Below, in pieces: positions 15,470 through 42,656 of a stretch of 64,000 nucleotides of DNA. Both the position numbers and the translations under genes were made by a program. The notes under the pieces were generated by a model that saw only the letters and a program-made list of their open reading frames with translations, had not been told where the DNA came from and made no database searches. The DNA is from Octopus sinensis (taxonomy: Eukaryota), in assembly GCF_006345805.1 (NCBI RefSeq), contig NC_042999.1, positions 29,512,001-29,576,000 on the forward strand. Direction: 5' to 3'. Position 1 is the stretch's first letter; the number at the start of each line of letters is the position of its first letter.

Positions 15470-16500
15470 GTTTTTCAATAATTCCCAGAGTTCATTTTGC
15501 TTCTCTGGATTTCTCCTTCGCCAGTAATCTTCCAGATGTTTTCTGTAGCATTAAGATTGGAACTTTGTGTTGGCCAGTTCATAAGATCAAACCCCTCCAC
15601 CACACAAAAAATCCTTGACCCTCTTCGCGGGGTGACAAGGAGAGTTGACCTGCATGAAGATAGAAGGTTGAACTGTCGAGTATCAGAGGTGTGGAAGGGC
15701 ATGCTGTCTATGTATCTGCTTGTAGATTTCAGCATTGGGAGTTACTTGTAGGTGAATAATTGTACCGCGTCCAGCATCAGACATCACTCCCCATACCATT
15801 ACACTGCCTCTTATATATTTCATTGTCTCTTTCACCGACAAGATAACCTTTTGTCATTTAATCGCCGGACGGGACGTACTTCCCGCCGTCGGAACCACTA
15901 TCATTAAACATCGATTCATCACTAAAATTAACATGTTTTTGTCAAAAGCTCTAGCGAAATGAAGACGGGAACTCTGAATCTCCTTGGAGATCAGAGGTTT
16001 CTTTGTCGGTGTCCGAGCAAGCAGCCCAGAACATTGCAGCCGCCGAAAAACTGTTTTGCGCGTTACGTTCTCAGCTAATCCAGCGGGTGCAGAAACGTTA
16101 GCACGCCGGGCGGAATGCGTAGCCGTATTTCGTCTGCCGTTACGTTTGAGTTCAAATTCCGCCGAGGTCGACTTTACCTTTCATCCTTTCGGGGTCGATA
16201 AATTAAGTACCAGTTACGCACTGGGGTCAATGTAATTGACTTAATCCCTTTGTCTGTCCCCTCTATGTTTAGCCTCTTGTGGACAATAAGGAAATGTATC
16301 CGAGCAGCACTCTTAAACCTATCCTTCAGTGACCTTCTAACCATAAACATTCTTGTTTTGGTGACGTTTTATGTGGTCTACCGGTATTACACTTTAGGCA
16401 TTTGTCGATACAGATGACTGAAAAGGAGCTACAATTCGTTACATAGCACTTCTAGACATTTCTACAGTAGTTGCTATTACGGAATTGTACTTGCCCATTT
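15470..16500 (-). mobile_element. Decayed Tc1-like (DD34E) transposase, interrupted by a SINE
   Basis: Minus-strand motifs are GRPHKT, FSDESMF, GSVMVWGVMSDAG and WPTQSSNLNATENIW (consensus WPSQSPDLNPIENLW). Confidence 0.85.
16086..16295 (+). mobile_element. tRNA-derived SINE family B, nested in the Tc1 relic
   Basis: Contains gcagaaacgttagcacgccggg...gagttcaaattccgccgaggtcgacttt...cctttcggggtcgataaa. It is homologous to 25174 (-) and 63880 (+). Confidence 0.88.
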
Positions 16501-31458: not shown

Positions 31459-31493
31459 ATTTAACGTTTCGAGCAAAGCTCTTCTTCAGAAAC
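31459..31493 (-). ncRNA. Minimal type I hammerhead motif with intact core (family H1), in a repeat at about 31365-31560
   Basis: Minus strand reads gttt-CTGAAGA-a-GAGC-ttt-GCTC-GAAAC-GTT-aaat. Stem III is reduced to the palindrome AACGTT. Confidence 0.65.
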
Positions 31494-32098: not shown

Positions 32099-32144
<46 letters not shown>

Positions 32145-32161
32145 AAGCAGCAGAAAATTCA

Positions 32162-32213
32162 ACAAAATCTGTTACTCTGAGTTTCTCGTTGCCGTTCATC
32201 AGACAGTTTTTGC
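32162..32213 (-). ncRNA. Type I hammerhead ribozyme (family H3), downstream copy on the minus strand
   Basis: Minus strand reads gcaaaaactgt-CTGATGA-acg-gcaa-cga-GAAAC-tc-a-ga-GTA-acagattttgt. Core is complete and stem I has 11 bp with one mismatch. Predicted cleavage is between 32173 and 32172. Confidence 0.78.
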
Positions 32214-33206
32214 TAGTCAACGTACCCTGTATTTCCCGGGAAAATGGGGCTTATCCCTTGGTCCGTTATCATAAGCATTTCGCTAACTCTATAACCACAA
32301 TGCAAATTATGTAGGCCTGAAAACGGTTACTGTGCATTTACAGAAAATACTAAGCTGTCTTCAACATGATGCGGCTTTTAGTAATTCTCAATAAGTTATG
32401 GCGGTGCCCTAGCAATGGCGGTGCCCCAGCATGGCCACAGCTTGTGAGCTGAAACTAAATAAAATTTTAAAAAAGCAAAATGTGAAGGCAGCTGTGTAAG
32501 AACATGAAATTGGTTACCCGATAGAAAAAAATTTAAAATAAAGTAGCCCCGTAAAGGGCTTAATGATTCCCAGTGTATATAGAACCTAAGGAAATACTAA
32601 TAAGGTATGTATAATAAAATAGTGAAGCAGGTTACGTAATAACAAGCTAATGAAATATGAGATGATGACAATTCAAAGAAAATGACTCTGAAAAGAGATT
32701 TAGTGCCTTCCCAGACAATATTCCCCTCAGGGGCGCTAGTGTTTTTATATTCATGAATATATCACTAACCGACATAAGTGCATCTATTGTTTAGGGAAAT
32801 ATTACTTACTTGTTTAAGGGTTGTACTTGATAATTTGAGAAATGATCCTAACAGTTGAAATACTAAGAAATATACAAATTCAATTTCATATTTTTTTATG
32901 ATTTAGAAATACCTATGGATTATTTCCCTTGGCCACATAAAAGGATCACTTCCTGGAGTGAATGTGATAGTTCCTTTGGTTTTTAAAAGAAAATATTTAG
33001 CTGATAAGGATCCCTGCCAGAAGCCCTATTATAACTTTTTCAGCAATTTGAGTATGCCATGAGTTTTCCATATACGAGTTCTACTCACGTGTCAAGTTAC
33101 ATCAAAATGTACGAGAAGTTACCTAAAAACTCCACAAAGACACGAACAGACAGAATGTTTCGCATATATGTAGTATATATGTATGTATGTATGTATATAT
33201 ATACAT

Positions 33207-33240
<34 letters not shown>

Positions 33241-33296
33241 GTATGTATATATATATATATATTATGTATGTATATATATGTAATATGTATATATAT

Positions 33297-33338
<42 letters not shown>

Positions 33339-33355
33339 AAGCAGCAGAAAATTCA

Positions 33356-33407
33356 ACAAAATCTGTTACTCTGAGTTTCTCGTTGCCGTTCATCAGACAG
33401 TTTTTGC
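33356..33407 (-). ncRNA. Type I hammerhead ribozyme (family H3), upstream copy on the minus strand
   Basis: Identical to 32162-32213. Predicted cleavage is between 33367 and 33366. Confidence 0.78.
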
Positions 33408-34400
33408 TAGTCAACGTACCCTGTATTTCCCGGAAAATGGGGCTTATCCCTTGGTCCGTTATCATAAGCATTTCGCTAACTCTATAACCACAATGCAAAT
33501 TATGTAGGCCTGAAAACGGTTACTGTGCATTTACAGAAAATACTAAGCTGTCTTCAACATGATGCGGCTTTTAGTAATTCTCAATAAGTTATGGCGGTGC
33601 CCTAGCAATGGCGGTGCCCCAGCATGGCCACAGCTTGTGAGCTGAAACTAAATAAAATTTTAAAAAAGCAAAATGTGAAGGCAGCTGTGTAAGAACATGA
33701 AATTGGTTACCCGATAGAAAAAAATTTAAAATAAAGTAGCCCCGTAAAGGGCTTAATGATTCCCAGTGTATATAGAACCTAAGGAAATACTAATAAGGTA
33801 TGTATAATAAAATAGTGAAGCAGGTTACGTAATAACAAGCTAATGAAATATGAGATGATGACAATTCAAAGAAAATGACTCTGAAAAGAGATTTAGTGCC
33901 TTCCCAGACAATATTCCCCTCAGGGGCGCTAGTGTTTTTTATTCATGAATATATCACTAACCGACATAAGTGCATCTATTGTTTAGGGAAATATTACTTA
34001 CTTGTTTAAGGGTTGTACTTGATAATTTGAGAAATGATCCTAACAGTTGAAATACTAAGAAATATACAAATTCAATTTCATATTTTTTTATGATTTAGAA
34101 ATACCTATGGATTATTTCCCTTGGCCACATAAAAGGATCACTTCCTGGAGTGAATGTGATAGTTCCTTTGGTTTTTAAAAGAAAATATTTTAGCTGTATA
34201 AGGATCCCTGCCAGAAGCCCTATTATAACTTTTTCAGCAATTTGAGTATGCCATGAGTTTTCCATATACGAGTTCTACTCACGTGTCAAGTTACATCAAA
34301 ATGTACGAGAAGTTACCTAAAAACTCCACAAAGACACGAACAGACAGAATGTTTCGCATATATGTAGTATATATGTATGTATGTATGTATATATATACAT

Positions 34401-34434
<34 letters not shown>

Positions 34435-34485
34435 TATGTATGTATATATATATATAATATATATATATATATATGTATATATGTA

Positions 34486-34518
<33 letters not shown>

Positions 34519-34812
34519 AGCAGAAATAGAGGGAGGTAATTAGGTAGCTACATATACGTAGAGATTTATTTAGATACAGATAGTTATATAAATAAATAGG
34601 TAGACATATATACATATATGTATATTTATGTATGTATCTACAACATACATATTCATAAACGCAGCTTGCAAGGTTTTACTTAAATTAGTTTATCCAATGT
34701 AATAAAGTTCTTATATTTGCCTGGAGATTTAAGATGAATATTTTTGCGATAGGTTAACTTTGTTCTATGAATAATAATTCAAACATTTTTAAATCGTTAC
34801 GGAAGCTATCTA

Positions 34813-41793: not shown

Positions 41794-42613
41794 TCAGTAG
41801 TTTTATTTTTATAGCGTGCTTTCACTTCACTACCGAGCGCAGCTCTGTGTGCCTTGGGTATGTGCTGTGATTTGTTGTGATGCTCTGATGGTTATTGTAT
41901 GGAAAATGTTCTGCGTAGGATGTGTGCAGTGCCTAGTAGTGCAATTTTCTGTATGTTATATGTGTTTGTAAGTCCTGGTGTTTTTGTTATGTATTTGTCT
42001 GAATATTTTTTTATCATGCCTAATGCACCTACTATGATAGGAATTGTTTCTGTTTTCAGTTTCCACATTCTAGTTACCCTCTATTTCCAGGTCTTTGGTA
42101 TTTTGAGAGTTTCTCCATTTCTTTTAGAGACACGTTGTCATCTGCCGGTATTGATACATCATTAGAAAGCATTTTTTTCTTCATGATCTCTGACAACTAT
42201 ATCTGGTCTGTTGGCTTAATTTCTCTATATGTGTGTATCGGCATATCCCAGAGTATGGTTGCTTTCTCGTTTTCTGTGACCTTTTCTGGTGTGTGCCTAT
42301 ACCATCTTTTTTCTGTTGTTATTCCATAATGTTGGCATATCTTCCAATGTATGTAGGTTCCAACTCTGTCATGTCTGTGAATATATTCCTTCTTAGCCAG
42401 GACTGGGCAGCTAGAGATAATATGATTTATTGTTTCTTGTCCATCTCCATATATTCTGCAGTTACTTGTAATATTTCTTTTCATTACATGTTTTTGGTAA
42501 TTTCTGGTGGGGAGGCTTTGGTCTTGTGCTGCAATTAAAAATCCCTCTGTTTCTGCTTTGAGTCCTGAGCTTCTCAACCATTGCTGGGATTTTTCTTTGT
42601 CTATTTCTTTTGC

Positions 42614-42614
<1 letters not shown>
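41794..42614 (-). mobile_element. Relatively young 5'-truncated R4/Dong-like LINE, flanked on both sides by (AAT)n
   Basis: ORF 42197..42577 reads GLKAETEGFLIAAQDQSLPTRNYQK...CRIYG..ETINHIISSCPVLAKKEYIHRHD...ILWD, followed by IPIIVGALG and ALGTAHILRR. The 3' UTR runs into (AAT)n. Confidence 0.92.

Positions 42615-42656
<42 letters not shown>

Follow-up and report, generated by a model that had tools for sequence, protein, structure and literature searches.

Penelope-like elements of the Hydra clade are described (Craig et al. 2021, PMC8557442) as inserting in (TA)n tracts, carrying hammerhead ribozymes and encoding a reading frame with a recurrent set of motifs: RWK, DKT in place of DKG, a CxCX5C linker, and CxxC and CxH around the conserved E and N, with CCHH absent. 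Even in dimeric form, published Penelope-like hammerheads of this type show only weak cleavage (PMC4209133), and eight of the nine hammerhead dimers tested from Xenopus showed no cleavage (preprint 10.64898/2026.07.22.740005). In vitro, a Poseidon element uses two reverse-transcription start sites that bracket the 'tail', on AT-rich targets, and this activity does not require hammerhead cleavage (PMC11167929). Retrozyme monomers are typically about 150-400 nt long, and circles over 1000 nt are also mentioned (PMC7229834). Canonical non-autonomous Helitrons (HLE1) begin with 5′ TC and end with a 3′ hairpin and CTRR followed by the target T (PMC11417382). A literature search covering few subscription papers returned nothing on octopus retrozymes or on the Penelope-like family described below.

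We analyzed a 64,000-nt stretch of Octopus sinensis DNA (the window), in which two hammerhead motifs lie head to tail, and searched the assembly from which it derives (G000, 2.7 Gb). The object is a further copy of a known kind, a truncated Hydra-type pseudo-LTR (pLTR) with its hammerhead. This fragment was very probably doubled by a local duplication bounded by (TA)n, which is likelier to have arisen during assembly than to exist in the animal. On this reading, the hammerhead is seen twice because 1.2 kb between two TA tracts was duplicated.

Layout of the tandem and anatomy of the hammerheads

Self-alignment of the window placed the tandem copies at 32105-33324 and 33300-34518, identical in 1211 of 1225 alignment columns, and outside simple repeats the two differ by no substitution and four one-base indels in 1031 columns. 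The 1194-bp tandem with two identical hammerheads, which the preliminary description had reported, is therefore borne out in the assembly, where the sequence has a repeat period of 1194 bp, a low GC content (32%) and no coding capacity. The left breakpoint region is a (TA)n tract (32103-32141), which would also have been the insertion target of the Penelope-like piece. Adjoining it on the minus strand is a 5′-truncated 76-nt pLTR tip of a Hydra-type Penelope-like element (32141-32216) that bears the first type I hammerhead motif (32161-32214). A putative old non-autonomous Helitron-like element follows on the same strand (32213-33177), as delimited by its aligned relatives and the terminal rules of PMC11417382. 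It includes a SINE-like 3′ tail on the plus strand (32401-32470), and a compound (TA)/(TG)/(TATG) microsatellite (33178-33334) separates the copies. Copy 2 repeats the pLTR tip with its hammerhead (33335-33410) and, as placed by self-alignment and genome search, the Helitron-like element with the SINE-like tail (33407-34371), both on the minus strand. It ends in a compound microsatellite that runs into (TA)n (34372-34518), the right breakpoint region. Since the microsatellite between the copies resembles this last tract, the 5′ flank of the Helitron-like element belongs to the duplicated unit. The breakpoints on either side fall within (TA)n, a boundary that the preliminary description had already recognized.

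The two minus-strand hammerheads are identical type I motifs 1194 nt apart, with C3 at 32202 and 33396 and H17 (an A) at 32173 and 33367; G12 of copy 1 is at 32185. Stem I has 11 pairs, one of them G-U, and one A-A mismatch, and is joined to the core CUGAUGA. Stem II consists of 2 bp capped by GCAA with an A-A at its base and is followed by GAA; stem III is ACUC-A-GAGU, and A17 is the A at 32173 or 33367. This is the anatomy originally claimed, and the predicted cut sites, 32173/32172 in copy 1 and 33367/33366 in copy 2, were correctly positioned. Hammerhead motifs in the window exceed chance: a structure-aware type I descriptor matched three times (the pair and a motif at 31489), compared with one match in 20 base-shuffled windows. 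Rfam returned no hammerhead in the window at the gathering score and none among its 63 matches at E<=10. Additional hammerhead-like motifs of other sequence families were found in the window at 31489 (minus strand) and 60973 (plus strand) and at three loci elsewhere (L113, L126 and L128); these are probably other Penelope-like ends.

Folding predictions agree with the earlier view that this is a hammerhead of the Penelope type acting as a dimer. The minimum-energy structure of two isolated motifs is a double hammerhead, at -22.8 kcal/mol versus 2 x -10.3 kcal/mol for the separate motifs. Folding of a single motif favoured an inactive structure (z = -0.04 against 200 shuffles), a result that is uninformative for a dimer-type motif. 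The hammerhead is of the Penelope type and predicted to be built for dimer action. Two intact and identical cores, arranged head to tail on the same strand, would suit a retrozyme, as would the modelled pairing of the isolated motifs. In a 1321-nt read-through transcript, however, the double-hammerhead fold lies 17.7 kcal/mol above the minimum, a rough value for an RNA of this length, which speaks against that reading.

Origin of the parts

The search with 32141-32330 gave 59 genome matches. Two of these are the window copies themselves and one lies in the downstream part of the query; all the others cover only the first 58-80 bases. The 46-nt hammerhead core has 1,649 exact genome matches (827 + 822), whereas the reversed control has none. 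At 28 other loci that we retrieved, the motif forms the start of a 153-nt repeat whose usual 3′ ends are at about 83-86 and 153. This repeat sits in (TA)n either singly or as fold-back pairs, and solo pLTR pieces inside (TA)n were found at L007 and L024. The two 3′ ends observed here fit the two start sites of Poseidon.

One hammerhead locus led to a reverse-transcriptase frame, whose protein matched at 85-100% identity all 113 places scored among 26,164 candidates. The locus L068 is complete: it comprises a pLTR, a single 727-aa frame, a 3′ UTR of about 1 kb and a second pLTR with a 70-nt tail. The pLTRs start at positions 355 and 3708, so that their hammerheads are 3,353 bp apart, and window positions 32141-32216 are letter-identical to the first 76 nt of both. 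The element is inserted in (TA)n and carries the hammerhead in its pLTR on the sense strand. Of 1,936 exact matches that start at CTAG, 1,126 are also exact in the UTR sequence upstream and 810 are not, some of the latter being substitutions rather than truncations; starting at CTAG is, by these matches, common within the family.

The 727-aa frame contains the reverse-transcriptase motif YRDD followed by GVVY...YTG of a C-terminal GIY-YIG-type endonuclease, domain names here resting on motifs. RLRWK is present in all eight printed frames over 600 aa (seven distinct places), and the DKT/EKT motif reads SDKTRN in L074 and SEKTRN in L068. CxCX5C is intact in P0001 and L074; its regular expression missed seven of the eight printed frames, and L068 has F for the second C. 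The GIY-YIG-like stretch has no Cys between GVVY and YTG (CCHH is absent), and all eight frames have CxxC and CRH (CxH). Searches of Pfam, with a partial and the full 727-aa frame, and of PDB found no family. These motifs, together with (TA)n insertion and the hammerhead, are those described for the Hydra clade, and the parent of the 76-nt piece is accordingly placed there as a candidate member, by motifs rather than by a tree. Neptune, our first guess for its clade, was dropped on clade features.

The Hydra-type family is young and abundant and has long open frames, several of 720-770 aa; the complete copy L068:355-3860 corresponds to G000:C17:13932740-13936245. Its hammerhead is unlike the published Hydra-1_oBim row, so the family is possibly unlisted, and an apparently active partner element is present in the genome. 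In the fold-back pairs (L003, L005, L009-L013, L016, L019, L020 and L025; for example G000:C1:71052567-71052658), the two arms meet at the self-complementary CTAG immediately 5′ of stem I, or close to it; typically one arm extends to the short 3′ end and its partner to the tailed one. This arrangement suggests two oppositely primed cDNAs annealing at the CTAG palindrome. The same spot also resembles a 3′ splice site, and a Penelope intron end has been reported at helix I (PMC4209133). One and the same retroelement locus recurs, with no difference in scores or layout, in four small contigs (L058-L061; G000:C10284, C10285, C10713 and C11374), a sign of assembly redundancy.

The remainder of the unit has a different source. 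The segment 32218-33165 matched at all 40 places scored among 3,136 candidates, and the 38 non-self relatives are 74-81% identical over the long segment. All 38 lack query positions of about 184-258, which correspond to 32401-32470; this insert, missing from the six relatives displayed, has relatives elsewhere in the window and is what we take to be a SINE-like tail. When 18 relatives were aligned, they had sharp ends and unrelated flanks. At the minus-strand 5′ end, TC follows the target A in 8 of the 18 (by eye), and TA takes its place in the window copy and five relatives; at the 3′ end, 13 have a hairpin and CTAG, with T next in 12. The relatives' termini thus match those of canonical non-autonomous Helitrons, and the element would span 33177 to 32213. 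In copy 1, the 5′ end is near 33177, the 3′ hairpin is at 32225-32240 and CTAG is at 32213-32216, four bases in which the end of the Helitron and the start of the pLTR piece overlap. With about 79% identity to its relatives, TA in place of TC and a mismatched hairpin, the body of the unit appears from its alignments and termini to be an old non-autonomous Helitron-like element; a Helentron/HINE reading was dropped on the termini. The unit is therefore a mosaic of a terminal-repeat fragment, a SINE-like tail and a Helitron-like element, as the preliminary description held, except that 33140-33180, which it took for the 3′ end of that element, is the 5′ end, and the 3′ end is at 32213-32240, next to the ribozyme.

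The junction between pLTR and Helitron has two exact genome matches, which are the two window copies. The 1194-bp unit is therefore not a mobile family, and the search for further arrays suggested earlier, made with this junction, returned none. The window has 219 complex stop-free frames; when the longest 100 were compared with Pfam, matches were only of the transposon type (three frames), so that no host transcript was identified, with the proviso that short exons would escape. Remnants of a Tc1/mariner-type transposase (HTH_Tnp_Tc3_2 and a weak DDE_3) and of zf-RVT were observed at 15478-16180 and 42200-42655, both on the minus strand.

The doubling and its explanations

As a control, we scanned 60 unselected 10-kb stretches of DNA one by one (600 kb in total), which contained six near-identical head-to-tail duplications. 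Two of these, in L091 (592 bp) and L117 (676 bp), lack a hammerhead core and have (TA)n at every boundary. In L092, (TA)n is present at the outer ends only, two others are not TA-bounded, and L123 is a different phenomenon described below. Duplications bounded by (TA)n thus occur about once per 300 kb of control DNA, and repeat loci were doubled likewise at L078, which has no core, and at L012/L013, a pLTR fold-back pair. The duplicated spans are L091:4186-5392, L117:4762-6143, L078:664-1382 and L012:1067-1690, with (TA)n-bounded units of 300-700 bp. These hammerhead-free cases indicate that the doubling needs no ribozyme, and because every pLTR end adjoins (TA)n, some pLTR ends get caught in such doublings. 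The preliminary description had itself cautioned that the repeat might reflect slippage or an assembly duplication, and that caution was justified. Because they were found in the same assembly, the control duplications say nothing on a biological versus an assembly origin.

That question was addressed with contigs assembled from six sequencing runs of four studies (X1-X6), runs with a share of 0.14 or less being left out. All four differences between the copies are one-base losses, two in each copy. The extra base of copy 1 at 32747 is present in contigs of X1, X2 and X5, and the copy 2 form at 34188, and at 34197 where reached, is present in those of X2, X3, X5 and X6; the G of copy 1 at 32238 is the form found in relatives. 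The read contigs support a single sequence at three of the four difference sites. One-base losses of this kind are typical of consensus errors in unpolished long-read repeats, and the pattern fits a false duplication and likewise a real, very young one. By contig depth, which is a rough guide taken from contigs rather than raw reads, gives no copy number and can be inflated inside repeats, five of the six runs look about single-copy: body/flank ratios were 0.88 (X2), 1.02-1.34 (X3), 1.06-1.35 (X4), 0.86 (X5) and 0.87-0.92 (X6). In X1 the body depth was 48.1 and the flank depth 23.4, a ratio of 2.06 that would be consistent with a genuine duplication in the animal sampled. X1 and X2 have one sample label and different genotypes, and either may be the source sample. 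No displayed contig spans the pLTR-Helitron or the inter-copy junction, and 33472-33559 is without contig cover in four of four runs; only the longest pieces were displayed, so that this gap proves nothing. Taken together, the duplication is probably an assembly artefact, and a real and recent event, private or polymorphic, is a rather doubtful alternative.

The following order of events may account for the locus. An old Helitron-like element would have inserted and later gained the SINE-like tail. A Penelope-like endonuclease could then have nicked the neighbouring (TA)n, with reverse transcription starting near the short pLTR 3′ end and stopping after 76 nt, and the cDNA might have been joined to the Helitron end via the common CTAG. 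Finally, the block from (TA)n to (TA)n would have been doubled, likely by misalignment of the tracts, a step in which the ribozyme would play no part.

We considered whether copy 1 instead derives from copy 2, through a Penelope-like enzyme that copied a read-through RNA ending in the pLTR tip into the adjacent (TA)n. Members of the family do form partial tandems and have (TA)n as their target, and a Penelope-type protein primes inside RNA and nicks AT-rich DNA in vitro (PMC11167929). Such a local retro-duplication is nevertheless very improbable: neither copy stops at the family's usual 3′ ends (pLTR about 83-86 and 153), the shortened end is identical in both, ribozyme-free duplications of like build exist, and contig depth is mostly single-copy. 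There is slightly less to be said for rolling-circle duplication by a Helitron reading past its 3′ terminator and capturing the pLTR tip. The Helitron-like 3′ end does lie directly upstream of the tip on the same strand, but the duplicated unit holds about 150 bp of Helitron 5′ flank, so that the duplication does not begin at the 5′ terminus, and the copy is old (about 79% identical to relatives), with TA for TC and a mismatched hairpin. Just as far-fetched is a nascent retrozyme, for which the duplication would have to be real in some animals, read through on the minus strand, cut by the two hammerheads into a 1194-nt RNA that circularizes, and available to the Hydra-type enzyme; such a retrozyme would have been put together by chance from a pLTR tip, an old Helitron and a microsatellite. 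The least credible reading is a dedicated non-LTR retrozyme, a unit that would be transcribed, cut by the double hammerhead, circularized and returned to the genome by the reverse transcriptase of a Penelope-like element. The genome apparently holds an active partner, but the pLTR-Helitron junction exists only in these two copies, and no other near-identical body was found among the 40 scored places (non-self places are at most 81% identical over the long segment). Moreover, the breakpoints fall within (TA)n, the length of the unit is some four times that of the typical ~300-bp monomer (PMC7229834), and its hammerhead is the tip of a coding retroelement and its remainder an old Helitron-like copy. 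The retrozyme-like unit of the preliminary description is thus unsupported, and a pLTR fragment doubled between (TA)n tracts remains the preferred explanation.

The genome does contain a dispersed family that looks quite different from the window unit. The 561-bp unit at L123 has its own, different type I hammerhead with a palindromic stem III, lies in (TA)n and has no frame over 91 aa. At the 39 places scored among 1,275 candidates, its copies are mostly 97-100% identical and range from monomers, dimers and trimers to an 8-mer, with inverted partial copies as well; examples are L123:1531-3622 (G000:C1:60011531-60013622) and, for the 8-mer, G000:C8632:19971-24472. This is a genuine retrozyme-like or non-autonomous Penelope-derived family, and it serves as an internal positive control that the window unit does not resemble.

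Relation to known systems

The window object is an ordinary transposon relic that advises caution in reading double hammerheads: where more than 1,600 identical pLTR hammerheads lie next to (TA)n, and the assembly has a (TA)n-bounded duplication every few hundred kb, they arise with no retrozyme involved. Should the duplication be real and transcribed, it would illustrate one route by which a retrozyme could be born from Penelope-like ends. Better leads are the young family of Hydra-type elements and the tandem family with the 561-bp hammerhead-bearing unit, a stronger retrozyme candidate.

Compared with the Hydra clade as described in PMC8557442, the parent element is alike in RWK, DKT/EKT, CxCX5C, the absence of CCHH, CxxC with CxH, and (TA)n, and it shares with the C-terminal EN+ elements of that clade both short and 'tailed' 3′ ends and inverted 5′-truncated copies. 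The hammerhead layout is close to the Hydra-2_aMil row of the same source (ctgt/acag in stem I, actc-n-gagt in stem III, cut after A). In contrast, it differs by eye from the octopus Hydra-1_oBim, for which the motif row alone was compared, and its 2-bp stem II is weaker; moreover, the window holds only 76 nt of the element, and the parent unit measures 3,353 bp where <3 kb is reported. The motif resembles the published hammerhead class in being type I, in its dimer-type helix III and in being found mostly either singly, in truncated elements, or in inverted pairs that lie close together. It differs in its long helix I and in a short helix II that lacks the conserved G10.1-C11.1 pair. Relatives of the body share 5′ TC, the 3′ hairpin with CTAG and an A|T target with non-autonomous HLE1 Helitrons (PMC11417382), whereas the window copy has TA where 5′ TC is expected. 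Finally, the tandem in the assembly is like animal non-LTR retrozymes (PMC7229834; preprint 10.64898/2026.07.22.740005) in having two complete head-to-tail type I hammerheads, but it is non-dispersed, spans 1194 bp rather than about 300 bp (PMC7229834), and is made of unrelated older transposon pieces and microsatellite.
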